64,000 nt of DNA from an uncultured bacterium (GTDB lineage: Bacteria > Patescibacteriota > Minisyncoccia > UBA6257 > 2-01-FULL-56-20). The first letter of the stretch is position 1. The number at the start of each line of letters is the position of its first letter. The notes below the pieces were generated by a model. That model did no database searches. It was not told the origin of the DNA and saw only the letters and a list, made by a program, of their open reading frames with translations. The position numbers were made by a program, and so were the translations under genes. Shown piece after piece: positions 23,834 to 57,113 of the stretch. Location: assembly GCA_963696395.1 (NCBI GenBank), contig CAVOJZ010000002.1, positions 656,344 to 720,343 of the forward strand. The letters are read 5' to 3'.

Positions 23834-23948
23834 GCGCCCTCTACAATGACGTTTTGCGCAAGCAATTGCCCAAAAAAGAAAAGGGAGAGGAAGAGAAGCC
23901 AAAAGCTGAATCCACAACGCAAGCGACCACATAAGAACGTGGTCAACT

Positions 23949-23978
23949 CCGCCGGACTTCTCGTCCGGCGGTTTCTTT
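23949..23978 (+). terminator. Orphan intrinsic terminator (ccgccggac/gtccggcgg stem + TTTCTTT)
   Basis: Perfect 9-bp stem with a U-tract on the plus strand and no upstream plus-strand gene. It may be a remnant or an insulator between the IS and the R-M operon. Confidence 0.5.
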
Positions 23979-24117
23979 ATGTTGGTGGATAACCAAACGT
24001 ATTTTGTGTCTCGCACTGCCTTGGATGAGGGGGCCTTGTGAGGACAAAACGGGGTTGTGTACGTCCCCCTTGATGGAAATGGCAAGAGGGAAAACGTCGA
24101 CAATTCTCGGCTAGACG

Positions 24118-24140
24118 CCGCTTAACGAGCGGTTTTTTTT
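24118..24140 (+). terminator. Orphan intrinsic terminator (ccgct/agcgg stem + T8)
   Basis: ccgcttaacgagcggtttttttt. Confidence 0.5.
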
Positions 24141-24389
24141 GTGATACATTGAAGTCACAACTGAATAGAAGTCGCCTAAACCTGTCAGAAATGGCGGGCA
24201 TGGCGCAAAGTCCGGTTAGACATAAAGAACCCATCATGTGGGATTGTCTAACCGGCCATATCGGGAAACCGATATGGAGGGCCAAAAACCCTCGCCTACG
24301 TGGTGGGCTTTTTATTAAAAAAGTTTTCTGCGTGGCGAGCTATATATCTTCAAGCCGGACGGAAGATATGGACGGAATCAGCCACGGTT

Positions 24390-26486: not shown

Positions 26487-26487
26487 T

Positions 26488-29181
26488 ATGGCCCTACCTA
26501 AAGATTTTCCCAAAGATCCCTATGCCATATTAGATCCGAGCATTCGATGGTTTCCTGCCGATGAAGATTTGCGCGAAAAAGGGTACGACAAACTTCTGCC
26601 TCCACTTGTCGCTGAATTACGCAAGAGAGTAAAGAAGTGGCGAGACGATCACTATGAAGGTGCAAGTGAAACCTCGCGAGCGCTTTTGAACTGGTGGTTT
26701 AATGAGGATCATATTTTGTACGACGAATATGGCGCATCGTCTCAGTTTAGATATTATTTTGCCCAAAGGGAGGCGTTAGAGACGGTTATCTGGTTATATG
26801 AGGTCGCAAAGGTCAAAGATAAGTACGACCTCATTCGATATAATTCGACCGGCGTGCTGAGTGCGGGGATGTTCACTGAAGACTGGTTGCGTTTTGTAAT
26901 CAAGATGGCAACGGGGTCGGGCAAAACCAAGGTGATGAGCCTTGTGGTGGCATGGGCATATTTCCATAAAAAATACGAATCAGATTCCAAATTGGCAAAG
27001 AATTTTCTCTTAATAACTCCTAATGTCATCGTCTTCGAAAGAATAAAGAACGATTTTGAGGGGTTGAAGATATTCTTTAGCGATCCCGTGTTACCGGAAA
27101 ATGGATATGAGGGTCAAAACTGGCAGGATGATTTTCAGATGACGCTTCACTTACAAGACGACTTGCGGAACGTCTCTGAAACGGGAAACATATTTCTAAC
27201 GAATATCCACCGAGTATATGAAAATGACGTAAGGGAAGCGAGTCCGGACGACGAGGATGCTTCTGCGTATTTCTTGGGCGAGAAGCCTGTTACGAAAACA
27301 AACGATTCTACGGTCGATTTAGGGATGATCGTCAGAGATATCGATGAGCTGATTGTCATCAACGATGAAGCGCATCATATACACGATGAAAAGATGGCGT
27401 GGTTCAAGTCGATTTTGGATATCGATAACAAATTGAAGCAAAAGGGGTCGGGTTTGGCTTTGCAGCTGGACGTGACAGCAACGCCAAAGAAAAGTGACGG
27501 GTCTATTTTTGTGCAAACCATTTCCGACTATCCACTTGTCGAAGCCATATACCAGAGAATCGTAAAAAATCCCGTTGTGCCGGATGCGGCGAGTAGGGGA
27601 AAACTGAAAGAAAATCAAAGTGCTTTGTTCAGTGAAAAATACAGGGATTACATAAACCTTGGCATTGAAGAATGGCGAAAAACGTACGAGACGCTCAAGC
27701 CCATGGGCAAGAAATCAATTCTTTTCATCATGACCGATGACACGAAGAACTGCGATGAGGTTGCTGAATATATCGAAACGAGCTACGCAGACTTGAAAGG
27801 GGCCGTCTTAACTATTCATACCAATAAGAGCGGTGAAATCTCGGAGAATGTTACCGGCAAGAACAAGGATGAATTGGATTTGCTGAGGAAACAGGCGAAC
27901 GATATAGATAGCTTGGAAAGCCGGTTTAAAGTAATCGTGTCGGTTATGATGCTCAAAGAAGGATGGGATGTCAAAAACGTCACCACAATCGTCGGGCTGA
28001 GGCCGTTTGCGGCAGATTCAAAGATATTGCCCGAACAAACCCTGGGGCGGGGTCTCCGAAGGATGTTCTTCGGCAGGGATGACGTTGAAGAATATGTGAG
28101 CGTCGTAGGCACACCGATGTTTATGGATTTCGTCGAATCCATCAAGGGCGAAGGTGTGATCCTTGAAAGGAAAGCGATGGGGAGTGGGTCAAAACCGATT
28201 ACGCCGATGGTCGTTGAAGTGGACAGGGAGAATCCCAAGAAAGATATTGAAAAGTTGGACATTGAAATACCGGTGATGTCTCCCAGGATACAAAGGGAGT
28301 ACAAGAATTTGGCGGAGTTAGATGTTTCCACTTTTGGGAATAAGAAGGTTAAAGTGAAAACTTTCTCCGAAGAGGAGAAAAGAGAAATAGTGTTCAAAGA
28401 CGTCGTCGATGAAAAGACGCATCATACGACCATATTGACCGGGGATATCGAGCCGGATTATCAAAGCGTTATCGGTTTTTTTGCTCAATCGGTGATGAGG
28501 GACCTTCGGCTGTTCGGCTGCTACGATATTTTATTCGGCAAGGTGAAGGAATTCGTGCAGCATCACCTGTTTGATAAGCCGGTGGATTTGTCGGATCTGA
28601 ATGTCTTGAGGAATTTATCGGAGATCGAATACATACGACTAATCAAAGAGTCCTTCAAAAAAGCCATCAACGAACTCACGGTGCAGGATAAAGGCGATGC
28701 CGAAATCAAGAACTATATTAAAATCAGTGAAGCGCGGCCATTCGTCGTCAATGATAAGTCCTACTTAATCCCTAAAAAATCAGTTTTCAATAGGATTGTC
28801 GGCGACAGCGATTTTGAACTCGTCTTCTCGGAGTTTATCGATAGGTGCGACGACATCATTTCTTTCTCAAAGAATTTTCAAAATAAGGAGACGAATGCTT
28901 TGAGGATTGAATATAAAAATTCGGAAGGTGTCATCGCTATGTACTATCCCGATTTCTTCGTTAAGAAAGATGATCGGACGGTCTATATTATTGAGACCAA
29001 GGGGAGAGAGGAGGAAGACGATAAATTGAAATTTGAACGATTACAAAAATGGTGCGAAGATGTTAATGAGAGACAGAGCAGAATGATGTATAAAGCTTTA
29101 TATATTAAGCAGGAGGAGTGGCAAAAAGAACGACTCAAGAATTTCGATGAGGTTATAAGGATGTTTGATAAAGAAAAATAG
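26488..29181 (+). CDS. res: Type III restriction enzyme Res subunit (SF2 helicase + C-terminal PD-(D/E)xK nuclease)
   Basis: Walker A IKMATGSGKTKVMS, DEAH-like VINDEAHHI, helicase motifs, and C-terminal YYPDFFV...IIETKG. The ATG is 1 nt after the mod stop, indicating translational coupling. Confidence 0.8.
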   Translation: MALPKDFPKDPYAILDPSIRWFPADEDLREKGYDKLLPPLVAELRKRVKKWRDDHYEGASETSRALLNWWFNEDHILYDEYGASSQFRYYFAQREALETVIWLYEVAKVKDKYDLIRYNSTGVLSAGMFTEDWLRFVIKMATGSGKTKVMSLVVAWAYFHKKYESDSKLAKNFLLITPNVIVFERIKNDFEGLKIFFSDPVLPENGYEGQNWQDDFQMTLHLQDDLRNVSETGNIFLTNIHRVYENDVREASPDDEDASAYFLGEKPVTKTNDSTVDLGMIVRDIDELIVINDEAHHIHDEKMAWFKSILDIDNKLKQKGSGLALQLDVTATPKKSDGSIFVQTISDYPLVEAIYQRIVKNPVVPDAASRGKLKENQSALFSEKYRDYINLGIEEWRKTYETLKPMGKKSILFIMTDDTKNCDEVAEYIETSYADLKGAVLTIHTNKSGEISENVTGKNKDELDLLRKQANDIDSLESRFKVIVSVMMLKEGWDVKNVTTIVGLRPFAADSKILPEQTLGRGLRRMFFGRDDVEEYVSVVGTPMFMDFVESIKGEGVILERKAMGSGSKPITPMVVEVDRENPKKDIEKLDIEIPVMSPRIQREYKNLAELDVSTFGNKKVKVKTFSEEEKREIVFKDVVDEKTHHTTILTGDIEPDYQSVIGFFAQSVMRDLRLFGCYDILFGKVKEFVQHHLFDKPVDLSDLNVLRNLSEIEYIRLIKESFKKAINELTVQDKGDAEIKNYIKISEARPFVVNDKSYLIPKKSVFNRIVGDSDFELVFSEFIDRCDDIISFSKNFQNKETNALRIEYKNSEGVIAMYYPDFFVKKDDRTVYIIETKGREEEDDKLKFERLQKWCEDVNERQSRMMYKALYIKQEEWQKERLKNFDEVIRMFDKEK

Positions 29182-29556
29182 ATGGACACGATCCACCTCG
29201 TCCATAATGGTTTCAAAGAGCCAACGAAGGAAGCCGCTGATTTGAAGGACGAGCTTAAGAAACGCGGTGTTAAGGTTTACGTGGAACTCAACGACGGATA
29301 TAAACATGTCGATCTGGCACTTCCCGATGCAAAGCTCAACGTTGAAGTGGATGGTGTTCACCACCTTACTAACCCGAAACAGATCGTAACAGACCTCAGT
29401 CGTGGATATTATTCGAACAAGTTAGGATATAGCACTATGCATATCCCAAACGAGATGATTCGTCTGCACCTAAAAGAAATAGCGGACGCGCTCGCCGAGG
29501 CATCGAAGATGCTCGAACAGAAGATACGAATTCACCTCACTGGGGACGATAAATAA
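29182..29556 (+). CDS. DUF559/Vsr-like endonuclease-fold protein (124 aa)
   Basis: VEVDGVHHL motif. The start abuts the res stop codon, so it is co-operonic with the R-M genes. Confidence 0.5.
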   Translation: MDTIHLVHNGFKEPTKEAADLKDELKKRGVKVYVELNDGYKHVDLALPDAKLNVEVDGVHHLTNPKQIVTDLSRGYYSNKLGYSTMHIPNEMIRLHLKEIADALAEASKMLEQKIRIHLTGDDK

Positions 29557-29567
29557 CAAAAGTTGCC

Positions 29568-29705
29568 ATGAACGCTTTCGTCAAATTAATAATAGGATTA
29601 GCGGCACTGATATTTATAACGTTTATGACGATGGCTTTCGGCATGGGCGGGTTCTTCTTTACACTCGGACTTTTTGCCGTAGTAGTGTGGGCTTTTGCGA
29701 AATAG
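29568..29705 (+). CDS. Small hydrophobic membrane protein (45 aa)
   Basis: MNAFVKLIIGLAALIFITFMTMAFGMGGFFFTLGLFAVVVWAFAK. It is not in the ORF track because it is under 60 aa. Confidence 0.3.
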   Translation: MNAFVKLIIGLAALIFITFMTMAFGMGGFFFTLGLFAVVVWAFAK

Positions 29706-29745
29706 CTGCGCATAATCAATCCATGGAGACAAGCAACCGAAAAAA

Positions 29746-29970
29746 ATGATCTCGCAAGAAGCATTGGAAGAATTTAAGGCAATCTATAAAAACCAGTTCG
29801 GCATCGAGCTATCGGACCAAGATGCCCTAGAAAAGGCCACGAAACTTCTCACGCTGATGAAGGCCGTTTATAAGCCCATAACAAAAGAGCAATACGATAC
29901 GGTCGAGAAGCGGCGCAAAGAGTTAGATAATGGGGCATGCGTGGGAAAGCCACGTATGAGGAGATGCTGA
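29746..29970 (+). CDS. Hypothetical small helical protein (74 aa)
   Basis: ORF only; co-oriented with its neighbours. Confidence 0.3.
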   Translation: MISQEALEEFKAIYKNQFGIELSDQDALEKATKLLTLMKAVYKPITKEQYDTVEKRRKELDNGACVGKPRMRRC

Positions 29971-29979
29971 TTTTAGGGC

Positions 29980-30195
29980 ATGAGCAGGAAAGCTGCTGAT
30001 GGAGGAGAATTGATTTTGTATAATGAAGGCATGAAAGAGAGAAGGGTTGTTGAGTTGCTCCATCATTTTTATTGCAAGAAGTGTAAGAAGTGGTGGTCGA
30101 TAGGTGATGCGCCGACAAACAGGCACGTCTGGTTTTGCCCATGGTGCGGAAGGGAAAATAATTACCGGCTCAAAAAAAGCAGGGCGAAGCGCTAA
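29980..30195 (+). CDS. Small zinc-ribbon protein, copy 1 (conserved 54-aa core MKERRVVELLHHFYCKKCKKWWSIGDAPTNRHVWFCPWCGRENNYRLKKSRAKR begins at ATG 30031)
   Basis: CxxC-x16-CxxC ribbon with a basic C-terminus. The core is about 90% nt-identical to 55905-56080. The conserved block starts at ttgtataatgaaggcATG, where TATAAT sits 6 nt before the ATG. Confidence 0.55.
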   Translation: MSRKAADGGELILYNEGMKERRVVELLHHFYCKKCKKWWSIGDAPTNRHVWFCPWCGRENNYRLKKSRAKR

Positions 30196-30320
30196 CCTCG
30201 CGCTTTCGACCTGGGATAGCAAAGATTTTAGCTCAACAAAGGTTGGGCTATTTTCTTAGTACCTTTATCCCCGCCTCTTCATTTTGCCCCCGGAACAAGG
30301 TAGAATAAAGGGTAAGACTC
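30177..30320 (+). repeat. Intergenic module copy: hairpin 1 (gaagcgc/gcgcttt), terminator hairpin (agctcaac/gttgggct + ATTTTCTT, 30230-30258), promoter-like segment with C5 tract, 5' leader
   Basis: Shared with 34540-34704, 51050-51131, 56081-56119 and, in part, 40160-40200, 44905-44965 and 57035-57113. Confidence 0.7.
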
Positions 30321-33300
30321 ATGGCAGGCAACCTTTATAAGAAATCCCTCTATATATTGATAGCTCTCGGGCTCATCTGTTTTGGGATGCAGGTGAAACT
30401 GGCGGAGGCGGTGATCTTTCAGGTTGAGGTTGCGAGCTCGACGGGAAACGCAGTCAATTCTAGTGCGACTACGAGTTTCGCTACCTCGACAACGGCAGGA
30501 GAGTTTATCGTTGTTCATGTGAGCCCGACGCTTGTGAATGGCAGTACCGGTACTAGTACGGTCACTGACAATAAAGGCGATGTTTATACCGAGCTGTGGG
30601 CCGTCCATCAGAATTTTAACTATAACAACGAGCTCTTCTACCTCGCCGATGCCCCGCAAGGAGTGACAACGATCAGTGTCACGTTCCCTACTGGAGTGAC
30701 CAGTGGGGGTGTCATTGCTGCCCATTACACGGGAGTGGTAACCGCGAATCCACTAGACGTCTATTCTGCACCCCCTACTGGCGGTGGTTATTCACTCACT
30801 CCGTGGTCGAGTGGTGCGGTTACAACGAGCTATGCAAACGAGCTTCTAATAGGAACCGACTTCGCCCTTGAGGACGCTGGCAGCTGTACCATCGCGCCAA
30901 GTGGCAGTTGGACGCAGGATGCGAGTATGGGCGACAGTAACGGATTCGACGGTCATAACGGCGATGCAATGTCTTACGCCCATCAAATAGTCTCTACCGT
31001 TCAGACAAACATTCAGAACACAGGGATCAATCCCATCGGAACCTGCTACAACTATCCCGGCATCGCAACGTTCAAAGGTTTAGCTGCCACTACATCCACT
31101 CCCTCCGTCGCCTGGGTTACTCCGACTCAGAACGCTACCGTCTCCTCTACGATTACGCTCACGGCATCATCCACCGACGAGATTGCCGTCGCAAACGTTG
31201 CTTTCTACGAATCTCCCTCCGGTGCGAACTTCGCAAGCAGCACGCTTATCGGATCGACCTCCACCGCCTCAGGGACCCTCTACTCCATACCTTGGAACAC
31301 AAAAAACGTATCAAACGGTTCAACCACCCTCTGGGCTTTAAGTACGGACACCTCAAATAACACATCCACCGCATCGACTACGGTGAATGTAGAAAATGTG
31401 CCCACCATCAATTCCTTCTCCGCTTCTGCCACCATCGTCCTCTCCGCAGGAACATCAACGTTGAGTTGGAACGTCACGAAAGCAAGTTCCGTCGCCATCA
31501 CCCCAGGAAGCTTCTCGACCAGCACCCTCATCGGAGCGACTACCGTGAATCCCACTTCAACAACGGTTTATACCCTCACCACAGCGAACAGCAATGGCAC
31601 GAGCACCGCATCAACTACGGTGACCGTCGACTCCGCCCCTCCCACGACCCCCACCGGCCTCACCGCAACATCAACGTCCTCCACGGCCGTCGAGCTCTCT
31701 TGGGCATCCTCAACCGACAGTGGCGGTCCTGGTCTCGCCGGATACAACATCTTCAGATGTATCGGATCATGTACCCCAGGTGCGCCCGCGATCGCTACTT
31801 CTTCCGGCGCTTCCTATGGCGACACCGGACTTAGCGCTTCCACCACCTACACCTATGCCGTCTCGGCCTATGACACACTGGGACTCACCTCCGCCACTTC
31901 GACTACGGCAAGCGCAACAACCCAAGTAGGCCGCACCTTTTATATCGCTGCGAATGGCAATGACTCCAGCAACGGCACCTCAACATCAACGCCCTGGGCA
32001 CATGCTCCTGGCATGCCCAACTGCACGTCGATCTGCGCTTCGACCACTCCTCAGCCAGGCGACCGATATATTTTCAGGGGCGGGGATACGTGGCATTTCG
32101 GAAATAGTAGTGCCACGCCTTATGTCGGCGGAACATGGAATTGGAGTTGGAGTGGGACGTCTACGAATTGTGATACTTCTGACGCACCGTCGCCCGTGAG
32201 AACCTCGTGCATTTATATTGGTGTCAACAAAACTTGGTATTCGGGAAGTTCGTGGGCGCGTCCCATTATGAATGGCGACAATCCAACAAGCACGACCGCA
32301 GTAGCGAGTTGCTTATACGGAAACGTAGGCCCTCAGAATCAGTTCTTGCTTGTAGACAATGAAGCATTTGCGTGGTTCGACAGTTTTGAGTGGACTGGTA
32401 TGTGTCACAGCACGCCTTCCTCTGCGGGTAATAACTACGGAAATAATTACGATCTCTACATCGCAGACCCCGGTGGGTCAAGTGAAATCACTCAAAATAT
32501 TTTCTCAAATAATTATTTCCATGGATGGACCCATGTCCCGTTGTCTTGTTCTGACGCGAGCGGAGAACCAGTTGGGCAATGTTTTTCTGACTCTGCGATC
32601 TCTGGTGGTCTTATGACCACGTTCGGGCCGGGAAATATATGCGACGGCTGGGATTCTGATCCGTCAGATGTGGGTTGTATATTGTTCGCTCCTGGTTATC
32701 TCGTATACGATAATGTGTTTGCAAATATGGCGCAGATTGTGGTAAACGCCTATCACGATTGGCACGACAATCTTTGGTTTAACTACTATCCAACCGACGA
32801 CGGGGTAGCTCATGGCAATTCGTTTGAGTCGAACGTCGATGCTCCGCAGCACGATGAAGATGGGTATTATCAGCCCAACGTACCCTTCAACGTTTTCTAC
32901 GATAATATTTTAGGGAACAATGCGAGCGGCACCGGAGGCGATGTGAAGCTTTGGTTTACGCCAAACAATACTGCCGCCGAATATTACTTCAATAATATTG
33001 TTTATGACCAGGGAAGTGGGAACAATTGGGACATTGATACTTCGCAAGGCGGCGCGGCGGGACAGTTTATGTTTAATAACACGCTTGATGTGCCCAATGC
33101 CGGATCGCTAAACTGCACATCGCATTTAACCGTAACCGGAAATCACGAGGTCGTTGATGGGGGGTCGGCCTTTGCGAACGGTTCTTGCTCAATTTCGAAC
33201 GAGATCCAAATGACCCATGCAACTGCAGTGGCGCAAGCTTATATGGCAACCGGAAGAGGCACGAGTGGATCGAACAACAACACAACCTGTGCAAATAGCT

Positions 33301-34539: not shown

Positions 34540-34704
34540 CATCATGCACCGGAGCATTGCAGTGGGCGAAGCGCTAACCTGACGCTTCGGACCTGGTATA
34601 ACAAAGATTTTAGCTCGACAAAGGTTGAGCTATTTTCTTATATACTTATCCCCACCTCCTCATTTTGCCCCCCCCAGAACACGGTAAACTGATAAGTAAG
34701 CTCT
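34540..34704 (+). repeat. Intergenic module copy: hairpin 1 (cgaagcg/cgcttcg), terminator hairpin 34611-34639, promoter-like segment with poly-C8 (~34667-34674), leader
   Basis: See 30177-30320. There is no intact zinc-ribbon gene upstream; only its 3' tail (gggcgaagcgctaa) remains. Confidence 0.7.
34667..34674 (+). promoter_or_regulatory. Poly-C8 homopolymer in the putative -35/-10 spacer (TTTTGC-C8-AGAACACGG-TAAACT) upstream of the 34705 gene
   Basis: Homopolymeric tract between -35-like and -10-like hexamers about 30 nt upstream of the ATG. Coordinates +/-1. Confidence 0.4.
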
Positions 34705-37700
34705 ATGATAGGCACCCTTCATAAGAAATCCCTCTATATATTGATAGCCCTTGGGCTGTTCTGTTTTTTTGGCTTTATTCCTCAGGTTCATGCTGCTCCA
34801 GCCGTTGTGCAAAGCTGCAATGATATGGAATATACCGCCAAGGCGACGTGCACATTGCCGGGCAACATGGGGCCAAACCATACGATTATTGCTACGGCAT
34901 ATTCATCAGCCGCTAGTGATACGTTTTCAATCACAGGATGCGGGGGTAGTTGGAACAACCTTTATGCCTATAACGCGGCAAACTTTTCATGGAATGTCTG
35001 GACGACGACATCAACGAATGGCCTATCGTGCACCGCTTCGACAACGCTTAACCCCAATAACAACTATAACTTTCTTGATCTCATGGAAGTTTCGGGTGTC
35101 GGAGCGTCCGACGTAGCTCCCGCGGTCAATAATCCTTCCTATTGTTCAAGCTGTTCCAGTGCGCCGATAACAACCGCGACCAATGGCGACCTTGTCCTTC
35201 TTTTGAATTTCGACCCGAGTACTTATGAAGCCTATAGCAACTTCACTAACAGTTTTTCGATTTTTGCGCAGGGAACTTCAACGGTGCACGGTCAAGGTAC
35301 CGGATCCTATGCCATATCAAATCTTTTGCAATCTCTCGCGGGAAATATTTCAAGTACATGGACTGCTTCAGTGGCGTCGTCATATGAGGACAGCCTCATC
35401 ATGGCGTTCAAGCCGGGTCAGTCTTTTCCTGCAATCTCTTCCTTCTCCGCTTCCCCCTCGGAAGTCCTTCCCGGAGGAACATCGACACTAAGCTGGAATG
35501 TTTCCAACGCCTCTTCGGTCGCTATCACCCCAGGTTCTTTCAGTACGAGCACGCTCATCGCATCTACGACGGTAAATCCCACCTCGACGACGATGTATAC
35601 TCTGATCGCCACGAACAGCAACGGGACGAGTACAGCGACGACGACGGTGAGTATCGATTCATCGACTCCAACCACGCCGACCAATCTTGTCGCAACCTCT
35701 CTCTCTGCCTCGCAAATATCCCTCGCCTGGACTTCGTCCACGGATAGCGGGGGGTCGGGCATCGCCGACTACAACATCTTTAGGTGTCTGGGATCCTGTA
35801 CTCCCACCACGACAGTCGCCACTTCATCAGGTGCTTCCTATATCGACAGCAACCTCACTGCCTCAACGACCTACACCTATGCTGTCCAGGCCGTGAACGG
35901 CGTAGGAACCCTAAGCGCTACAAGTACAAGCGTGAGTACGATGACGCAGGCGAGTGGCGGCACCGACCCATGGGCTGGCATCATTGCGCCCTCCCGGGCC
36001 ATGAATTGGAAGGAAGAGGCTGGCCTTACCCAAACATTTCCTGATGGCGAAACAACGCTGAATGCGTGGACTCCGCCAACCCGAGCAACCGTTTGCGCCA
36101 CCGTAGCGCCAGAAGGGACGGCAGCATCGCCAGTCGCCTTTGCCAGTTCGAACCTCGAGATAGCCGAGGCGTCCTGCCCCGCAGGCGAAGTGGTGCAGCT
36201 TGAAACTGGGAGCTACTACTACAGTACCAATCCCCAGATCGCTTCGATTTCCTACCCAAACACCATCAATAACATAACGGTGCGCGGCGCGGGCGCAGAT
36301 CAGACTAAAATCTATGCGCCGGGCTTTGGTCTCACAGGTAGTGATGTGTACGCTTCTGAGGCGTACAGCAATGCATGGTCGGGACCGTATGCTCAGGGCT
36401 CGCTCACCACCACCTTTTCCGGTCTCTCAGTAGGTGACTTGCTTAACTTATCCCAATGTGCCACCGGGTTTAGTGGGTCAAACCCGTGTACGAATCCAAC
36501 GAACTCAGAGATCGATAATGGTGGAGAGTTTGTTACCAGTCTGGATAATCCTTGGTATCACATAAATGGAACCAACGTTCAGGGAGGGCAGCTCGAGTTC
36601 CAGGTCGTACGGGTCAACTCAATAGTAGGCTCAACGGTGACGTTTTCTGACCCGGTGCAACCCGACAATTTTTCCAGCGCAGAAACACCGTCTTTTGAGC
36701 GCATATATTCTGGGACTAATGGGGTTCCGAATGGTATTGGTCTTGAGGATTTATCTCTTGATGCGACCTTCGATTCTGGAACCGGAGGACTCGGTATAAC
36801 ATTCTGCTACGACTGCTGGGTTAAAGGCGTAAGACTCATCACCACAACTCAAAACTACAACGGCGACGTAGGTGTGGACGGCTCAGATCATGTATTGATA
36901 GCGAATAACTATTTCTCCTTCGGGAACTCCGGCAATTATGGGATCTCGATTGGGAGTTCAGATGGCGTAAGTAACGCTCTCGTGCTAAATAATATCGTTA
37001 CTGGTTCCGGTTTTATCAGCGGTGACGGAGCAACGGGGGTGGTAATTGCTGATAATTATGTGGCACCGTCCGAGCTTGACGAGATTGATTCGCATAGCCC
37101 CTGGAGGGATTATACGCTGGTCGAAGGCAATGTCGCTTGTTCATACGAAGACGATCCCGACCATGGTGGTGCGGCCGATTTCACGACGTTGTTCAGAAAT
37201 CGTCTTGGCACGAATCAGACCTGCCTATCTGCAGCGTCAACAATCAGCGAGGGGGCTGGGAGTCGGTACACTAATATTGTTGACAACGTTTTGGGATTGC
37301 CGGGTTTTACCACAGCCTATCAAGACTTTGATTATTCGGCGAGTAGTCCGGCTGTATATCAATTTGGTGCCAATGCAGTAACTGGTAGCGCAGGTATTCC
37401 CTGGGACCCTCTGAGTTTAAATACATCATTCCGGTGGGGTAATTGGGATGACGTAAACGGCGGCGTACAGGAGAATGACTCTGAAGTACCTAGCTCACTG
37501 GATGCAGCAGTAGGCTATCAGCAGGCACTCAGTGGTAGCAGCACAACGTGGTCGGGAACCCTCGCTCATCTTCCGGGGATTTCGCCGGATAGCGCCGTGT
37601 ATGTTCCGGCAACAGTCACGAGTTCCCCCCAGCTTTTCGCATTTGATAACGGCTCGGGTACATTGACATACAACGGTACGGGAACCATCAATTATTCCAC

Positions 37701-40116
37701 GGGAGCAGTGTCGGTCACTTTCCCGGATTCAGTGCCGAGCGGCGACGCCGTTTATGTCAACTATCTCCAGCAAACATCAACGACAAGCCCATATCAAAAC
37801 CCGATCCCGAGTGGTCCGTTCCCACCAAGTTTCTTCATTCCGATCTCAGCACATCCAAACGGCGGCACTGGTTTGTCCTGGTGGGGAGCCTGCACTGGAT
37901 GGAGCGGTACCACCTTCCACTCGACATGTGCGTCAACATACAGGCCGCCTTGGCCCGCAATCGGAGGAGATGTGACCGGTGCCTCAGATGTGACGGGGCA
38001 TGCGTATAACATACCAGCGCAAGAATCCTATGCGGAATTGTCGGATGATCTGAACTATGGGACGGCATACACCGTTACTGGCGCGAATTGGAATAATGGC
38101 ATCGCGACCATCACGATTTCAGGCTCATTCAATGCGGGTGAGTATGGGCCGTATGGAGAGGTAACGATCACTGGGATTTCACCATCAGCTTACGACTGCA
38201 CGGATTGCGCGATCACAAGCAACAGCTCGGGGCAGATTAGCTATCAATTGGCAAGCAATCCAGGCACATTTGTTTCGGGAGGCAGCGCGAAGTGGCCGAT
38301 AATCAAGCAATTCAACGAGGACATCTACCAGGCCGATCCGAGTTCTTCCTCCACCCCCACCATCTCCTCTTTCTCCTCCTCTCCCTCTTCCATCACCCTC
38401 GGTTCATCCTCTGTCTTGTCCTGGAATGTCTCAAATGCATCTTCTGTCCTTCTCACAGGCAACAACCTCAATCTTTCAACCAGCACCGCTTCAGGAACAG
38501 TCTCCGTCACTCCGAATGCCACAGGAACCCTCATCTATACCCTTGCCGCCAACAACTCGAATGGAACCTCGACCGCAACGACAAGCATCATGGTAGCCGC
38601 GGGGAATACCACGTCTTCTCCTCCCCAGAATCTCTCGGCAACCCCCCACAACGCCTCGGTCTCTCTCTCCTGGCAAGCTCCTTCCTCCAACGGAGGATCA
38701 CCTCTCACGGAATATCTTGTGTATGACCGGTTCACGGGATCAAGCACCTTTGCCTTGTATGCAACAACGTCTCCCAGTCAAACAACGTCAACCGTCACTT
38801 CCCTCACGAATGGAACCAGCTATGACTTCGAGATCATCGCCCAAAACAGCGTAGGGACTTCAACCCCCAGCACTATTGCATCCAGTACCCCGTATACCGT
38901 CCCCGGAGCTCCGACCGGTGTCTCTGCCACCGCAGGCAATGCCGAAGCAACCATTTCGTTCACCGCTCCAGGATCCAACGGGGGATCAAGCATCCTCTTC
39001 TATACTGCCACCTCGAACCCGGGGAACATCCAAGCCTCATCCACCGCCTCTCCCATCTCGGTATCCGGTCTCACGAATGGTCAAAGCTACACCTTTGTCG
39101 TCACGGCTACCAATCTTGCGGGAACGGGTGCTTCTTCCTCTCCCTCAGGGAGCGTGACCCCCTCGGGAAATGCACCTCTCATCAATTCATTCTCCGCAAG
39201 TCCCCAATATACAGAACCCAGCGTCACCTCAACGCTCTCCTGGAATGTGAGCAATGCCTCTTCCGTGAGTATCACCCCAGGAGGATTCTCTACCTCAACC
39301 CTCATCGGCTCCTGGAATGTCGCTCCCACCTCGACGACGACATATACCCTTACGGCTTCATCCAATGGGAACGGCACGAGTACCGCCCAAACAACGATTA
39401 CCGTCCAAAGCATCCCTCCCTCAGTACCCCAGAATCTCTCCGCAGATCCCGTATCCACCTCAGAAATTGATCTTTCCTGGTCAGCAAGCACAAGCACGAT
39501 CCCCATATCCGGATATGGCGTATTTGAAAACAGCATACAGATTGCAACGACATCAAATACCTCATACCAAAACACCGGTCTCAATCAAGACACCACCTAC
39601 ACCTATGCGGTCGACGCTATTGATGCCGCAGGGAATGTATCAGGACAAAGTTCATCCACCTCGGCAACCACGGAAACCCAGCAATCCGGGGGAGGTGGCG
39701 GCGGCGGAGGCGGAGGCGGCGGTGGTGGTGGTTGCTACTACAACTGCAGTTATGGAGGTTCTTCCTCCACAAGCACACCCTCAAGCACAGGATCAGGAAG
39801 CTCATCTTCTCTCCTTGCAACCCTTCTCGCAGAACTGGAAGCCCTGATCAAAGCAATGAATACCCAATTAGTCACGTCTTTCACACGAAACCTCACCATT
39901 GGATCACGAGGAACCGATGTCCAAAACCTCCAGATCTTCCTGAATGACAATGGCTACCCGATCGCAAGCTCAGGAGCAGGATCAATCGGCAAAGAATCCA
40001 CCTACTTTGGCGCAAAGACACAAGAAGCCTTGGCCAAATGGCAGAAGGCAAACCATCTTCCTGCTACCGGATACTTTGGGGGACTGACGCGGGGGGAGAT
40101 GAACAAGCTGTATTAG
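34705..40116 (+). CDS. Giant surface protein paralog (1803 aa): signal peptide, N-terminal domain shared with the 57114 gene, Ig-like/FN3, large beta-helix domain, several Ig-like/FN3 domains, poly-Gly, C-terminal PG-binding module
   Basis: LHKKSLYILIALGLFCFFG signal. Beta-helix segment similar to the 57114 gene (APSRA..W...). Three FN3-like PPQNLSA...SWQAP domains. C-terminus LNDNGYPIASSGAGSIGKESTYFGAKTQEALAKWQ. Confidence 0.8.
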   Translation: MIGTLHKKSLYILIALGLFCFFGFIPQVHAAPAVVQSCNDMEYTAKATCTLPGNMGPNHTIIATAYSSAASDTFSITGCGGSWNNLYAYNAANFSWNVWTTTSTNGLSCTASTTLNPNNNYNFLDLMEVSGVGASDVAPAVNNPSYCSSCSSAPITTATNGDLVLLLNFDPSTYEAYSNFTNSFSIFAQGTSTVHGQGTGSYAISNLLQSLAGNISSTWTASVASSYEDSLIMAFKPGQSFPAISSFSASPSEVLPGGTSTLSWNVSNASSVAITPGSFSTSTLIASTTVNPTSTTMYTLIATNSNGTSTATTTVSIDSSTPTTPTNLVATSLSASQISLAWTSSTDSGGSGIADYNIFRCLGSCTPTTTVATSSGASYIDSNLTASTTYTYAVQAVNGVGTLSATSTSVSTMTQASGGTDPWAGIIAPSRAMNWKEEAGLTQTFPDGETTLNAWTPPTRATVCATVAPEGTAASPVAFASSNLEIAEASCPAGEVVQLETGSYYYSTNPQIASISYPNTINNITVRGAGADQTKIYAPGFGLTGSDVYASEAYSNAWSGPYAQGSLTTTFSGLSVGDLLNLSQCATGFSGSNPCTNPTNSEIDNGGEFVTSLDNPWYHINGTNVQGGQLEFQVVRVNSIVGSTVTFSDPVQPDNFSSAETPSFERIYSGTNGVPNGIGLEDLSLDATFDSGTGGLGITFCYDCWVKGVRLITTTQNYNGDVGVDGSDHVLIANNYFSFGNSGNYGISIGSSDGVSNALVLNNIVTGSGFISGDGATGVVIADNYVAPSELDEIDSHSPWRDYTLVEGNVACSYEDDPDHGGAADFTTLFRNRLGTNQTCLSAASTISEGAGSRYTNIVDNVLGLPGFTTAYQDFDYSASSPAVYQFGANAVTGSAGIPWDPLSLNTSFRWGNWDDVNGGVQENDSEVPSSLDAAVGYQQALSGSSTTWSGTLAHLPGISPDSAVYVPATVTSSPQLFAFDNGSGTLTYNGTGTINYSTGAVSVTFPDSVPSGDAVYVNYLQQTSTTSPYQNPIPSGPFPPSFFIPISAHPNGGTGLSWWGACTGWSGTTFHSTCASTYRPPWPAIGGDVTGASDVTGHAYNIPAQESYAELSDDLNYGTAYTVTGANWNNGIATITISGSFNAGEYGPYGEVTITGISPSAYDCTDCAITSNSSGQISYQLASNPGTFVSGGSAKWPIIKQFNEDIYQADPSSSSTPTISSFSSSPSSITLGSSSVLSWNVSNASSVLLTGNNLNLSTSTASGTVSVTPNATGTLIYTLAANNSNGTSTATTSIMVAAGNTTSSPPQNLSATPHNASVSLSWQAPSSNGGSPLTEYLVYDRFTGSSTFALYATTSPSQTTSTVTSLTNGTSYDFEIIAQNSVGTSTPSTIASSTPYTVPGAPTGVSATAGNAEATISFTAPGSNGGSSILFYTATSNPGNIQASSTASPISVSGLTNGQSYTFVVTATNLAGTGASSSPSGSVTPSGNAPLINSFSASPQYTEPSVTSTLSWNVSNASSVSITPGGFSTSTLIGSWNVAPTSTTTYTLTASSNGNGTSTAQTTITVQSIPPSVPQNLSADPVSTSEIDLSWSASTSTIPISGYGVFENSIQIATTSNTSYQNTGLNQDTTYTYAVDAIDAAGNVSGQSSSTSATTETQQSGGGGGGGGGGGGGGGCYYNCSYGGSSSTSTPSSTGSGSSSSLLATLLAELEALIKAMNTQLVTSFTRNLTIGSRGTDVQNLQIFLNDNGYPIASSGAGSIGKESTYFGAKTQEALAKWQKANHLPATGYFGGLTRGEMNKLY

Positions 40117-40207: not shown

Positions 40208-40310
40208 CGAAAACACCCCAGAGAAAATCTGGGGTGTTTGCTATGTGTTCAGAAATCGAATACGTCTTTTTCTTGTCGTGATGTATTCAGAAAATGGACA
40301 TGCGAATATT
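40208..40310. repeat. Copy 2 of the ~100-nt hairpin + direct-repeat element
   Basis: aaaacaccccagagaaaatctggggtgt...tatgtgttcagaaatcgaat...tcttgtcg...gtattcagaaaatgga aligns with 21681-21790. Confidence 0.6.
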
Positions 40311-40343
40311 GAGCAATGAACCTCAACGAGATAGAATTAACGT

Positions 40344-40877
40344 ATGGCAAATAACTCGGCTTTTATCGACAGCAACAATCTTTATAAGGCGATGGAAACA
40401 CTCGGCTGGAAATTGGACAATGCAAAATTTCGAACGTTTCTCTCGGATAAGTATGACGTTCAGAAAGCATATCTCTGCATCGGATACATTCCGCAAAATC
40501 AGGCGATGTACACCCGCCTCCAGCAACAAGGATTCATTCTTATTTTTAAGCCAGTCCTGACTCTGAAAGACGGCACGACCAAAGGCAATTGTGATGCTGA
40601 CCTCGTATTGAGGGCAATGGTAGAATATCCGAATTATGATAAGGCAGTCATCGTGACCGGAGACGGAGATTATTATTCTCTGGTCGATTATTTGAAATCG
40701 CAAAATAAGTTGGAGCAATTGCTGATCCCAGATGAAAACCGGTATTCAGCGTTGCTTAAAAAGGTTAACAATGAGCACCTGAAATATATTTCTTTTATAA
40801 GTAGGATGCGGAATAGAATGGAGTATTTCCCCAAAAGCCCTAAAAATGAAAAGGGCCCCAGAAGGACGGAACCTTAA
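40344..40877 (+). CDS. NYN-domain (LabA-like) predicted RNase
   Basis: FIDSNNLY...GNCDADLVLRAM...AVIVTGDGDYYSLVDYL are the conserved acidic residues and layout of PF01936. Confidence 0.7.
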   Translation: MANNSAFIDSNNLYKAMETLGWKLDNAKFRTFLSDKYDVQKAYLCIGYIPQNQAMYTRLQQQGFILIFKPVLTLKDGTTKGNCDADLVLRAMVEYPNYDKAVIVTGDGDYYSLVDYLKSQNKLEQLLIPDENRYSALLKKVNNEHLKYISFISRMRNRMEYFPKSPKNEKGPRRTEP

Positions 40878-40979
40878 GGGAGCCTTTTCGTGGTGATACC
40901 TTACTATACTACAAAATTGCTGTCAAAAGTCAACGGGTGGCCCGCGTACCGCAGTGCACGAAGGGATAAGATCAAGATC

Positions 40980-41048
40980 TGCCGCGTTATCCCCACCTCC
41001 TCATTTTGCCCCCCCCAGAACACGGTAAACTGATAAGTAAGACACTAC
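40980..41048 (+). repeat. Promoter/leader part of the intergenic module (identical to 34645-34704) including poly-C8 (~41009-41016)
   Basis: ttatccccacctcctcattttgccccccccagaacacggtaaactgataagtaag is repeated verbatim. Confidence 0.7.
41009..41016 (+). promoter_or_regulatory. Poly-C8 homopolymer in the putative promoter spacer upstream of the 41049 gene
   Basis: Same context as 34667-34674. Confidence 0.4.
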
Positions 41049-44000
41049 ATGGTTGGCTGTCGCAGATATAAAAAGTTCTTCTATATATTGATCGTCCTTG
41101 GGGTGGTCTTGTTTGGGATGCAGGGGAGGCAGGCAGGTGCGGCAATAAGTCGCGTGCAGTTCCGGACTGGCGAAGTCACGAGTGCCTCTAGTTCGTTCTC
41201 GTTGACCGTGGCCGTTTCTTCTACGCAGGTAGGGGATTTGGAAACTTTGTATGTCCAGACAGGGTTAAGTCCATCCAATATCATAGGGGTCCAGGACTCT
41301 TATGGCGACAACTTGAACCGGATTCTCTGCTTTACAACAACCTATAGTACCCCGAACTGTCTTTACTACTATCCTAGTGTTCCCCTCAACGTCACTTCTG
41401 TCACGATTACGGCAACGGGGACTCCCGGGAGTATCGTTGCCGGATTCGCCGAGTATTCTGGTATCGCGACATCAAGCCCCTTAGACGCGACAAGTTCGTT
41501 CGTGTATAACCCCGCCACGACTACGGTGTGGACAAGCGGCATTGCAACTACCACGCAGGCTGGTGAATTGTTTATCGGAGCAGCCGTGGACACAGATAAC
41601 AACTATACATTGACTCCGAATTCTCCCTGGAATAATGTCGGCGGAGGCACGATTGAACACGGACACGGAGCCGCCGATCTTTACCTGGATTATTTCCCCA
41701 CCGGAAATGATAGTGGATATGTCTCAACGGGAACATTGTCCCAAGCGGATCAGGTCGGTGCAGCCATAGCCTCGTTCAAAGCTACTCCTGCCGCTCCCAC
41801 AATTGCGTCTTTTTCCGCAAGCCCTACTCTTGTCAGTTCCGGCGCTTCGACTCTCAGCTGGAATGTAAGCAATGCTTCTTCGGTGGCTATCACTCCAGGA
41901 AACTTCAGTACGAGCACCCTGGTTGGTTCCACAGTTGTGGCCCCTACTTCAACCGTTGTATATACCTTGACCGCTGCAAACGCCATCGGAACGAGCACAG
42001 CGACAACGACGGTGAATTTCGACGATACCCCTCCCACCACTCCAACGAGTGTCATTATCACATCAGTCATGACGTCCACCATCTCGTTTTCATGGGCTAG
42101 TTCCACAGATCCAATAGTTGCTTCCGATACGACCTCTGGCGTTGGTGGGTATGACATTTATCGCAATGCGATCTTTGTCGCTTCGACGACCGCATCCTCA
42201 ACCACTTTTTCTGATACAGGCCTTACGGCCAGTACCACGTACACATACAACATCGCTGCATTCGATAATGCTGGCAATATAAGTGCCACGTCGACAGGTG
42301 TTCAAGGAACCACTCAGTCAAATACTCATGTTTTCTACATCGCCGCGGACGGGAACGATGCCAATCCGGGCACTTCAAAATCCGCCCCGTGGCTTCATGC
42401 TCCCGGTATGCCGAATTGCACTGGGACGTGTGCGGCATACACGCCTCAGCCGGGAGATCGGTTTATCTTCCGCGGAGGGGATACGTGGCATACGGCGAAC
42501 TCATCCGCAGCAGACGGGAATACGAATGCGTATACAGGGTACGGTCCCGATCCCATCGATAATCGCGCCACAAGTTCATGGAACTGGGATTGGAGCGGAT
42601 CGTCTACGACGTGTTCCTGGGTCGCTTGGCCGAATAGTGGCCTCCCAACCAATGATTCTGGGTGTATTTATATCGGAGTAGATAAATCCTGGTACAGTGG
42701 TGCCAATTGGACGAGGCCTGCATTCGATCTTGATAATCCGCTCAGCGCGTCATTTGTTTCCAGTTGCGCATACGACGAAACCAACGCGTTTCACGGAATT
42801 GACCTTGGGCAGTTCTACGGATATCCCGATGATGCGGTCCGCGGGATCATCTTTGATGGGTTTAATTTCTATGGGTACTGCAATTCTGCTCCACCTCTAC
42901 CAGGAGTTTCTTACGTAAATATTGTGGGGACCTATGTCGGAGTCATCAATTCTTACTTTCATGGATGGACGGAGACGGATAATCCTCAGCCGAACGGGCA
43001 AGCCCCCGAAGATCAATCACCGGCGGTCATAGATCATTACACGGATGCGATAGTTCCTAATGGTGCTACGCACAATGCGATCGCTTTCGACGTATTTGAC
43101 GGATCCGATGGTTACTGTCCAGGTCCCTCCGGCTATTGTTTGGGAGGGGGTCTAGGATTAGACTACGACGTTTCCCACAGTGTGTTTCGATACATGTCCA
43201 ATGGCATTGGCGGCCAAAATCAGAATGATGCTTACATACACGATAACCTGATCGAAAACTTGTATGAGAGTTTCGATCCGGCGGCACATGGCTCGGTTAT
43301 CGAACAGAATGGCAATGACCTTGCGCAACCGATGCAGTGGTACAACAATATCGTGCGAAATAATTCTATCGGAGAAACAGTGGCTCCGGACATAACAAAC
43401 AGTTCGACGTTGTATTATTTCAACAATGTGATGTTTAACAATGGCAATCCTACCAATTGCATGGAGTTTTCTTCCGGGAATAGCTCGTCCACCGATGACC
43501 AATCCTATCTTACTAATGACACCTTCGACGCACCTTGTAGTATACGATTAAATGCGGGAGGTAACGGTCCTCAGTATAAGGGGACGATCTATTTCCAGAA
43601 TAACCATGTGATCGGAACTGGAGCCACGTCAACTATGGCTTGGGTTGGTACACCGCCCTCGGGCATCACCATTACGGATAATGGCAACGAAGTTTTCCAA
43701 ACAGAATCAGCTGCCAACGCACAGGGATATGCGTCAAACACTAACTATGCCCCGACTTCAGAAACCGGAGCAACCGTTGGTGCGGGCGCGAACCTGACGA
43801 GTAACTGCTCAACATATTCATCAGATTCCGCGCTCTGTAGCGGCACGACCGCGGTTTCGTATGATGCTGCGGATTATGTCGCGCTTGCGGCAACATCTAC
43901 TGCTTCGCGCCCTTCGTCTGGCCCATGGGATTCGGGTGCCTACGAATATAGCCTGCCTCCTCCCGTGATATCTTCTTTCTCCGCTGCTCCTCTCTATGTT

Positions 44001-44897
44001 CAACCAAATGTTACATCGACCCTCAGTTGGAATGTGAGCAATGCCTCTTCCGTGAGTATCACCCCAGGAGGATTCTCCACCTCAACCCTCATCGGCTCCT
44101 GGAATGTAGCTCCCACCTCAACGACCACATATACCTTGACTGCTTCATCGAACGGCAATGGTACGAGTACCGCTCAGACGACGATTACCGTGCAAAGCAT
44201 CCCTCCTTCTATTCCACAGAACCTCTCAGCAACCCCCGTCTCTCCCTCAGAGATTGACCTCTCCTGGTCTGCCTCCACAAGCACCATCCCTGTAGCCGGA
44301 TACGATATCTATCAAAACAGCGTGAAGATCGCCACGACCTCCAATACGAGCTACGCCAACACTGGTCTTGCGCAAGCTACTACCTACACGTATACCGTGG
44401 ATGCTTTTGATGCTGCAGGGAATGTCTCCCCGCAGAGTTCTTCTACCTCAGCAACCACGGAAACCGAGCAATCTGGTGGTGGTGGAGGAGGAGGTGGCGG
44501 CGGGGGCGGGGGCGGGGGAGGCGGATATTACTACGAGCCTCCTGCGACGACCACAGCGTCAAGCACTCCAGGAACGGCAAGTGAGTCGTCACTCCTTGCC
44601 ACGCTTCTCGCGGAACTTGAAGCCCTCATCAAAGAACTCAATACCCAGCTCGTAGCATCCTTCACGAGAAACCTTACCATTGGATCACGGGGGACGGATG
44701 TCCAAAACCTCCAGGTCTTCCTGAATGACAACGGGTATCAGATAGCACCATCTGGCGTCGGATCTCTCGGACATGAGTCCACCTACTTTGGCTCAAAGAC
44801 CGCACAAGCCCTTGCCAAATGGCAGAAGGCGAATGGTCTTCCAAGTTCAGGCTACTTTGGGGCATTGACACGAGCGCTGCTCAACAAACTATATTAG
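41049..44897 (+). CDS. Giant surface protein paralog (1282 aa): signal peptide, Ig-like, FN3, beta-helix domain (shared type with the 30321 gene), Ig-like/FN3, poly-Gly, PG-binding module
   Basis: RYKKFFYILIVLGVVLFGMQ signal. FYIAADGNDANPGTSKSAPWLHAPGMPNCTG. C-terminus LNDNGYQIAPSGVGSLGHESTYFGSKTAQALAKWQ. Confidence 0.8.
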   Translation: MVGCRRYKKFFYILIVLGVVLFGMQGRQAGAAISRVQFRTGEVTSASSSFSLTVAVSSTQVGDLETLYVQTGLSPSNIIGVQDSYGDNLNRILCFTTTYSTPNCLYYYPSVPLNVTSVTITATGTPGSIVAGFAEYSGIATSSPLDATSSFVYNPATTTVWTSGIATTTQAGELFIGAAVDTDNNYTLTPNSPWNNVGGGTIEHGHGAADLYLDYFPTGNDSGYVSTGTLSQADQVGAAIASFKATPAAPTIASFSASPTLVSSGASTLSWNVSNASSVAITPGNFSTSTLVGSTVVAPTSTVVYTLTAANAIGTSTATTTVNFDDTPPTTPTSVIITSVMTSTISFSWASSTDPIVASDTTSGVGGYDIYRNAIFVASTTASSTTFSDTGLTASTTYTYNIAAFDNAGNISATSTGVQGTTQSNTHVFYIAADGNDANPGTSKSAPWLHAPGMPNCTGTCAAYTPQPGDRFIFRGGDTWHTANSSAADGNTNAYTGYGPDPIDNRATSSWNWDWSGSSTTCSWVAWPNSGLPTNDSGCIYIGVDKSWYSGANWTRPAFDLDNPLSASFVSSCAYDETNAFHGIDLGQFYGYPDDAVRGIIFDGFNFYGYCNSAPPLPGVSYVNIVGTYVGVINSYFHGWTETDNPQPNGQAPEDQSPAVIDHYTDAIVPNGATHNAIAFDVFDGSDGYCPGPSGYCLGGGLGLDYDVSHSVFRYMSNGIGGQNQNDAYIHDNLIENLYESFDPAAHGSVIEQNGNDLAQPMQWYNNIVRNNSIGETVAPDITNSSTLYYFNNVMFNNGNPTNCMEFSSGNSSSTDDQSYLTNDTFDAPCSIRLNAGGNGPQYKGTIYFQNNHVIGTGATSTMAWVGTPPSGITITDNGNEVFQTESAANAQGYASNTNYAPTSETGATVGAGANLTSNCSTYSSDSALCSGTTAVSYDAADYVALAATSTASRPSSGPWDSGAYEYSLPPPVISSFSAAPLYVQPNVTSTLSWNVSNASSVSITPGGFSTSTLIGSWNVAPTSTTTYTLTASSNGNGTSTAQTTITVQSIPPSIPQNLSATPVSPSEIDLSWSASTSTIPVAGYDIYQNSVKIATTSNTSYANTGLAQATTYTYTVDAFDAAGNVSPQSSSTSATTETEQSGGGGGGGGGGGGGGGGGYYYEPPATTTASSTPGTASESSLLATLLAELEALIKELNTQLVASFTRNLTIGSRGTDVQNLQVFLNDNGYQIAPSGVGSLGHESTYFGSKTAQALAKWQKANGLPSSGYFGALTRALLNKLY

Positions 44898-51049: not shown

Positions 51050-51131
51050 CTAGTGGGCGAAGCACTAAGCTGGCGCTTTGGACCTGGGATAGCAAAGATT
51101 CTAGCTCAACAAAGGTTGGGCTATTTTCTTA
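51050..51131 (+). repeat. Intergenic module copy (hairpin 1 degenerate; terminator hairpin 51103-51131 intact), then a unique leader
   Basis: agcaaagattctagctcaacaaaggttgggctattttctta. Confidence 0.65.
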
Positions 51132-51171
51132 TGGATCGAGAACAAACAAAGCAAAGTGGTAAAATGAAACA

Positions 51172-56080: not shown

Positions 56081-56090
56081 CGAAGATTTT

Positions 56091-56119
56091 AGCTCAACAA
56101 AGGTTGGGCTATTTTCTTG
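56091..56119 (+). terminator. Intrinsic terminator of the intergenic module (agctcaac/gttgggct + ATTTTCTT)
   Basis: 8-bp stem with wobble pairs and a 4-nt loop AAAG. The same hairpin occurs at 30230, 34611 and 51103 with compensatory substitutions. Confidence 0.7.
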
Positions 56120-57028: not shown

Positions 57029-57034
57029 AGCGGG

Positions 57035-57113
57035 GGCGAAGCGCTAAAACAGCGCTTATCCCCAAGTATTATTTCGCTCTAAAGAGGGTCGGGTAAACTG
57101 ATAGGTAAGCTAT
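57035..57113 (+). repeat. Partial intergenic module (hairpin 1 aagcgct/agcgctt; leader ggtaaactgataggtaag), no poly-C
   Basis: gggcgaagcgctaaaacagcgctt...ggtaaactgataggtaagctatATG. Confidence 0.6.

Follow-up and report, generated by a model that had tools for sequence, protein, structure and literature searches.

A C8 homopolymer in a promoter-like cassette upstream of two mosaic surface-protein genes of a Paceibacterota chromosome

Promoter homopolymers of surface genes and the locus under study

Homopolymers in promoters are known from several systems of bacterial surface genes. In Mycoplasma hyorhinis, each gene of the clustered vlp surface lipoproteins forms its own transcript and has a homopolymer in its promoter (PMC10502178; reviewed in PMC11868660). 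In Bordetella pertussis, small insertions or deletions of C in the C-stretch of the fim2 and fim3 promoters shift expression between high and low levels (PMC2562373), while in Neisseria meningitidis the homopolymers of porA (poly-G) and opc (poly-C) lie in the spacer between the -35 and -10 elements and act as volume control (PMC2562373; PMC11868660). We have examined a similar arrangement in a stretch of 64 kb from contig CAVOJZ010000002.1 (hereafter the window, the whole stretch analysed), which is part of a bacterial chromosome of Paceibacterota (Patescibacteria, or Candidate Phyla Radiation, CPR): two runs of eight C residues (C8) that precede the genes starting at 34705 and 41049 and lie within a perfectly repeated cassette of 55 nucleotides (nt). 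A first-pass annotation had seen in these runs a candidate switch for phase variation. Our preferred reading, to which we give a probability of about 0.5, is that the C8 run is a homopolymer in the spacer of an ordinary promoter, mutable over evolutionary time and not a demonstrated high-frequency switch. The surrounding repeat appears to be a real promoter cassette, for which the role of a contingency locus would be plausible but unproven.

By analogy, the layout of the cassette genes would most closely match that of vlp. Both are clusters of paralogous surface genes in a small-genome, probably host-dependent bacterium, with a conserved 5' cassette of promoter and signal peptide and a homopolymer upstream of the -10 element; single-gene transcripts, too, are expected here from the presence of an upstream terminator. 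In contrast with vlp, where the run is approximately A17, the present one is C8, belongs to two of the seven paralogs and precedes proteins with a peptidoglycan-binding anchor and no lipobox. The tract of the fim promoters is longer, approximately 13-15 C, and lies between the binding site of the activator BvgA and the -10 element. With fim our locus shares a poly-C in the promoter of a surface gene, and the two layouts would match if the conserved block TTATCCCCACCTCCTCATTTTG upstream of the run were a contact site; however, the activator is known and switching has been demonstrated in fim, whereas an activator is hypothetical here. As in porA and opc, a G/C homopolymer lies upstream of the presumed -10 element of a surface-protein gene, but in the Neisseria promoters the -35 element is recognisable and the spacing passes through 16-18 nt, while the best -35-like hexamer here, TTGCCC, stands at 14 nt with C8. 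Within the CPR, a precedent for localised, repeat-driven variation of a surface protein comes from a genome of Gracilibacteria, in which a hypervariable repeat gene for a predicted surface protein contains a coding array of 9-mers (PTD repeats; PMC6851277), unlike the promoter homopolymer considered here. For Patescibacteria/CPR, no account of phase variation mediated by repeats came up in our searches of the literature.

The 55-nt cassette and its probable promoter

The two C8 runs occupy positions 34668-34675 and 41009-41016 of the plus strand, as established by direct reading, pattern search and a homopolymer census; the coordinates first given for the second run hold, while those for the first (34667-34674) have to be moved one base downstream. 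The sequences preceding the two genes are identical, as had been noticed, and over a greater length than first quoted: the repeat TTATCCCCACCTCCTCATTTTGCCCCCCCCAGAACACGGTAAACTGATAAGTAAG (34646-34700 = 40987-41041, 55/55) ranks fourth in length among the exact repeats of the window and ends 5-8 nt 5' of the ATG of each gene. From the exact repeat and the paralog alignment, both plus-strand copies can be divided into the upstream block TTATCCCCACCTCCTCATTTTG, C8, AGAACACGG, the -10-like hexamer TAAACT and GATAAGTAAG. Two further cassettes complete a promoter family of four members (30321, 34705, 41049 and 57114). The cassette of the gene at 30321 (30264-30320, plus strand) has the C5 reported for it (30287-30291) and a -10-like TAGAAT at 30301-30306; its upstream block is 20/22 identical to that of 34705, and the sequence after the run, previously described as divergent, differs only mildly from that of the C8 copies (GGAACAAGGTAGAAT versus AGAACACGGTAAACT, equal in length and identical at 11/15 positions). 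The cassette of 57114 (57056-57113, plus strand) reads TTATCCCCA...TTTCGC-16 nt-TAAACT (57094-57099) and does lack the tract, having TCTAAAGA at the equivalent place. Only two of the seven paralogs carry the C8 run.

The distance from the upstream motif to the -10-like hexamer is 16 nt both in 57114 (TTTCGC) and in the C8 copies (TTTTGC), and 13 nt in 30321 (TTTTGC), the deficit of 3 nt lying entirely within the C-run. The stretch that the run occupies is free in sequence, as in 57114, and constant in length in three of the four cassettes, and so behaves like a promoter spacer. Judging from this alignment, the difference between C5 and C8 is the trace of slippage in the evolutionary past. Under our preferred reading, C8 would be spacer DNA of a small promoter cassette of sigma-70 type that serves genes for secreted, peptidoglycan-anchored proteins with FN3/Ig-like domains. 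The elements would follow one another as the conserved block, the C-run, AGAACACGG, the -10 element TAAACT, 14-17 nt and the ATG, and would drive short-leader transcripts with a 5' untranslated region (UTR) of approximately 7-10 nt and no Shine-Dalgarno (SD) sequence. The length of the run, altered by slippage over evolutionary time, would set the distance between the -10 element and the block, the latter presumably being contacted by RNA polymerase or by an activator.

A -10-like box precedes the ATG in all four paralogs: TAAACT at 14 nt in 34705 (34685-34690, plus strand), at 17 nt in 41049 (41026-41031, plus strand) and at 14 nt in 57114, and TAGAAT at 14 nt in 30321. Given this conservation, transcription of 34705 would start near 34697-34699. 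Relative to TAAACT, the tract extends from 17 to 10 nt upstream, which would place it roughly at -29 to -22 and in the 5' half of the spacer. Closeness of the -10 element to the start codon is frequent in the window: among genes with an upstream gap of at least 30 nt, 10/23 have a TAnnnT hexamer that matches TATAAT at 4/6 or more positions and ends 5-16 nt before the start, as against 16% of shuffled upstream regions and 7% of random positions (binomial P=0.0017). Genes with a good -10 box at 6-9 nt and no SD sequence include 8633 (TATAAT-7-ATG), 9715 (TAGAAT-9-ATG), 14926 (TAGAAT-6-GTG), 16102 (TATAAT-7-ATG), 40344 (TAGAAT-6-ATG), 47192 (TATAAT-8-ATG) and 51172 (TAAAAT-6-ATG). In two distant homologues of the surface genes, the start is preceded by GGTAAGAT (L028) and GGTACACT (L029). 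For this organism, mRNAs that are leaderless or have a very short leader seem to be normal.

The region upstream of the first copy adds another constraint. After the stop of the 30321 gene (34508) come a conserved 3' segment, the hairpin GCGAAGCGC...GCGCTTCG, a second hairpin, the 55-nt block and the ATG of 34705. The second hairpin, TAGCTCGAC-AAAG-GTTGAGCTA followed by TTTTCTT (34611-34639, plus strand), was retrieved by a terminator scan, folds as a hairpin, resembles an intrinsic terminator and recurs at 30229-30257, 51102-51130 and 56090-56118 with pair-preserving changes; it lies approximately 30 nt upstream of the C8 run and, by these features, is the element that closes the transcript of the upstream paralog, 30321. 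Since it ends at 34639 and the ATG is at 34705, transcription of 34705 must re-initiate within 65 nt.

This result bears directly on an alternative that we find improbable, namely that the tract lies outside the promoter. Transcription would then start further upstream, either by read-through (from the upstream gene or the NYN-domain gene that precedes the second copy) or from a promoter near TATACT (34641-34646), and the C-rich CCCCACCTCCTC...C8 would belong to the 5' UTR or to a protein-binding or structural element: an anti-SD-like CACCTCCT, a C-rich binding site, or an i-motif/G-quadruplex, which on the opposite strand would, by analogy with the region upstream of Neisseria pilE, promote recombination. 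CACCTCCT, identical to the canonical core of the 16S anti-SD, does lie within the conserved block, but such a mimic would have no SD close to the ATG to sequester. The opposite strand is G-rich (G8...GGAGG.GGGG), and the gene family is mosaic; however, the minus-strand GGGGGGGGCAAAATGAGGAGGTGGGG has at most three runs of three or more G, one of them after a 14-nt loop, instead of the four runs of a G-quadruplex motif. Rfam gives no match at the cassette, either at the gathering threshold over the whole window or at E<=1 over the spacer, and 57114 has no C-rich part yet retains the -10 element and the leader. Read-through into the second copy would be favoured by the result that the terminator scan found no plus-strand terminator between the NYN gene and 41049, whereas for the first copy the terminator stands directly 5' of the cassette. 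Moreover, the sequence 5' of the block is unrelated between the two copies, so that a promoter shared by them must lie inside the block.

Our reading of C8 as an ordinary spacer in an ordinary promoter has, nevertheless, several observations to contend with. The first-pass annotation had placed the tract in a spacer between a -10-like TAAACT and a -35-like TTTTGC or TTGCCC, of which the former agrees with the paralogs and the terminator, while the latter are poor or mis-spaced: TTGCCC matches TTGACA at 4/6 positions but stands only 14 nt from TAAACT, TTTTGC stands at 16 nt but matches at 2/6, and no hexamer at 16-18 nt exceeds 2/6. TAAACT itself matches TATAAT at only 4/6 positions, and a scan with the sigma-70 consensus calls no promoter at the cassette. 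Furthermore, the three longest gene-associated homopolymers of the window (a T9 in the gene at 4647 and both C8 runs) all lie at the 5' ends of surface-protein paralogs, a placement that fits the theme of contingency loci better than pure chance. We consider it probable that the tract is part of a promoter spacer, 5' of a -10-like element that the paralogs conserve. These promoters may be independent of a -35 element and lean on the conserved upstream block; alternatively, C8 may be a sub-optimal length, with TTGCCC coming into register near C11, where it would reach the 17-nt spacing that TTGnnn has from the -10 element in other promoters of the window (8633, 9715 and 40344). Either way, the length of the tract would be relevant in principle, which would suit a switch.

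Two other interpretations of the cassette were rejected. A promoter for an extracytoplasmic function (ECF) sigma factor, with GGAAC as the -35 element, would need a matching -10 element that falls at or beyond the ATG, and GAAC is absent from 57114. On the minus strand, a small open reading frame (ORF) or SD sequence is suggested by GGAGGTG, which is followed by a frame of five codons only.

Transfer of the cassette between mosaic surface-protein genes

Seven large paralogs are present in the window, and each of their products has a poly-Gly linker and a PG_binding_1 domain at its C-terminal end. The gene at 34705-40116 (plus strand) encodes a secreted protein of 1803 amino acids (aa) with a signal peptide, four FN3 stretches, the poly-Gly linker and the C-terminal PG_binding_1; that at 41049-44897 (plus strand) encodes a secreted protein of 1282 aa with a signal peptide, FN3, the poly-Gly linker and PG_binding_1. 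Sec-type signal peptides (MIGTLHKKSLYILIALGLFCFFGFIPQVHA/AP), FN3/Ig-like domains and the peptidoglycan-binding anchor in both products bear out their earlier description as surface proteins, and surface-exposed products are what promoter-repeat switches control. A lipobox of the form [LVI][ASTVI][GAS]C does not fit the signal peptides (LGLFCFF, LGLICFG, LGLVCFG and VVLFGMQ), which are followed by a cleavage site of AXA type.

Against the identity of their promoter cassettes, the two genes themselves are dissimilar. Their proteins can be aligned only across the signal peptide of 37 aa, their N-terminal domains are unrelated, and the coding sequences share 61% nucleotide identity in the first 90 nt and only the background level beyond. 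When the four N-terminal regions are compared (34705-35454, 41049-41798, 30321-31070 and 57114-57863), 34705 and 57114 form one pair (43% identity, E=1e-67), 30321 and 41049 the other (33%, E=1e-22). The identity of 55/55 in front of such dissimilar coding sequences implies a recent copying or conversion between neighbours in which the cassette moved without the genes that it precedes. It is by this copying between adjacent, non-orthologous genes that two identical C8 tracts exist, and both share a single origin by duplication. Taken together, the sequence relationships indicate a modular family of surface proteins with frequent segmental gene conversion. Promoter cassettes and C-terminal parts group differently from the types of N-terminal domain, and the paralogs have in common a scatter of exactly matching blocks, 41-130 nt long (e.g. 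8209-8338 = 54275-54404).

A two-hairpin terminator cassette (GCGAAGCGC..GCGCTTCG, then TAGCTCRAC-AAAG-GTTGRGCTA-TTTTCTT) is present, with pair-preserving changes, at 30182-30260, 34564-34642, 51055-51133 and 56078-56121, and its first hairpin alone at about 57033-57060, giving four to five intergenic sites in total. At 51055-51133 and 56078-56121 it is not accompanied by the promoter block, so that terminator and block are separable units. Upstream of the second C8 copy, the spacer between the paralogs is interrupted by the NYN-domain gene (40344-40877, plus strand), which ends 110 nt before the cassette; the left edge of the cassette identity (40987) lies 53 nt downstream of the inserted NYN cassette (40332-40933), and the latter follows a replacement terminator at 40211-40239. 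The DNA of this NYN cassette, including approximately 56 nt 3' of the stop, is 76-80% identical to that of NYN genes in unrelated Patescibacteria contexts (L008-L016), and a homologue search returned a best match of 88% identity, again in unrelated contexts, which suggests a mobile or often transferred unit.

Length, frequency and variability of the runs

If the C8 runs formed a slipped-strand contingency switch, their length would shift at high frequency and each surface gene would go up, down or off independently in subpopulations, through altered spacing and helical phase between the upstream block (or TTGCCC) and the -10 element. We consider this possible, though doubtful. The inferred position in a spacer, the confinement of the paralog indel to the run and the nature of the genes, which encode surface proteins of a mosaic, recombining family, would all suit a switch, and precedents exist in Bordetella fim, Neisseria porA and Mycoplasma hyorhinis vlp (PMC2562373, PMC10502178, PMC11868660). 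The same holds for the location of the runs: no other G/C run of at least 7 occurs in the window, whichever strand is considered, and the two lie between genes in a window of which approximately 88% is coding. The next-longest G/C runs are seven 6-mers, at 33159, 35749, 37625, 38642, 40091, 52702 and 54626, all within coding sequence. The number of C8 tracts, however, is not above chance expectation. In first- to third-order Markov simulations 0.5-1.9 G/C runs of at least 8 are expected per 64 kb, against the 2 observed, and C7 matches number 4, against 9.5 in dinucleotide shuffles; the over-representation that characterises contingency repeats is absent, in a test that covers the 64-kb window only. 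Phasome surveys place the threshold of hypermutability at approximately 8 or more for G/C tracts, and both loci reach this length only marginally, being shorter than the fim tracts. Further points against a switch are that both copies have the same C8, that five of the seven paralogs do without it, that 57114 maintains the same spacing with no repeat and that the few promoters of relatives that were compared have no tracts.

The last point derives from a series of searches. Scans for the exact DNA pattern of the cassette found no occurrence in GTDB species genomes, JGI metagenomes or IMG/VR viral contigs. When the conserved C-terminal domain (alignment A2) was used as the query for protein-guided retrieval, none of the 7 GTDB and 10 JGI loci obtained, at 41-69% identity, had the cassette or a tandem array. 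The protein of 34705 has its best matches, P0121 and P0126 (80-84% over parts), on one contig of 913,682 bp, and a chimeric query of the four N-termini had P0238 (52%) as its best match; neither search retrieved identical surface-gene fragments. No tract is present in the promoters of the P0238 and P0147 genes, nor in the surface-gene promoters of the relatives L028 and L029. Exact-protein look-ups found no record of the NYN protein (with two start codons), the 45097 protein or the 41049 protein. The DUF559 protein, by contrast, led to a Logan contig (L027, from run ERR11563597) that is identical to the window at 6445/6445 positions (23807-30251), including a T8 homopolymer at 24133. The match places the organism in run ERR11563597 and shows that homopolymer calls of the window are reproducible.

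This match counts against the reading that the tract length is an artefact of assembly or polishing, or that C8 is a functionless chance homopolymer of miscalled length, which we regard as very improbable. Errors of long-read assemblies fall mainly in homopolymers, which would speak for such an artefact, but the independent contig confirms a T8 and the two separately assembled copies agree on C8. The contig itself breaks off within a repeat, 36 nt short of the C5 run, and has no bearing on tract length.

Runs within coding sequence add to the case for a switch, while leaving it doubtful. One is the T9 in the signal-peptide codons of another paralog, 4647, and others are in-frame G8/C8 runs in homologous genes of relatives. 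The T9 (4665-4673) is the longest homopolymer in the window and encodes FFF, codons 7-9 of the signal peptide of the 4647-8585 paralog; a slip by one base would frameshift this gene near its start. In Paceibacterota metagenome-assembled genomes (MAGs), surface-gene homologues have in-frame G8 runs within the poly-Gly linker, just 5' of the peptidoglycan-binding domain, and one has an in-frame C8 (TPPS); these runs are located at 2914-2921 in L001, 191-198 and 242-249 in L002, 2641-2648 in L006 and 7001-7008 in L028. A slip there would detach the wall anchor, whereas the linkers of the window have no runs longer than 6.

A broader view, which we hold to be unlikely, is that environmental CPR episymbionts run a small 'phasome', in which a portable promoter cassette with a slippage-prone C-run and runs in coding regions together vary the display of wall-anchored, adhesin-like proteins. 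The cassette would have spread among non-orthologous surface genes by gene conversion, and the coding runs would be the T9 here and the in-frame G8 in relatives. The surface proteins of CPR episymbionts are thought to mediate attachment to the host; a clonal population could, if this view were correct, vary the surface that it displays to hosts or phages, and the CPR would have its first described contingency system based on simple repeats. A switch at the C8 tracts would likewise extend phase variation from host-associated pathogens to ultra-small environmental episymbionts, and tract length in reads would become a marker of the expression states of surface proteins in metagenomes. Should there be no switch, as in our preferred reading, the narrower results would be the short-leader or leaderless promoters and a 55-nt cassette that moves among paralogs independently of coding regions.

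The remaining content of the window is that of a chromosome, with one tRNA-Gly, an ABC/HlyD export set and genes for DnaG, RpoD, AlaS (short), S11, S4 and RpoA, that for RpoD lying at 11452-12702. Among GTDB genomes that share the C-terminal domain of the surface proteins, the nearest are MAGs of Paceibacterota/Patescibacteria of approximately 0.83 Mb. A 182-nt repeat with 89% identity connects 30015-30196, non-coding and upstream of the 30321 cassette, with 55900-56081, inside the ORF 55700-56080, and its copy at 30015-30196 is probably a gene remnant. Further to the left, 6 nt separate a full-length LOOT RNA (RF03000, 89.9 bits; 24173-24293, plus strand) from the GTG start codon of an N6_N4 DNA methylase gene, which is followed by a ResIII helicase/restriction subunit and the DUF559 endonuclease-like gene (block 24300-29556); the LOOT/methylase block forms an island of low GC content (0.44 versus 0.52) and high GC skew, and is bordered on its left by an IS30-like transposase (22779-23801, minus strand).

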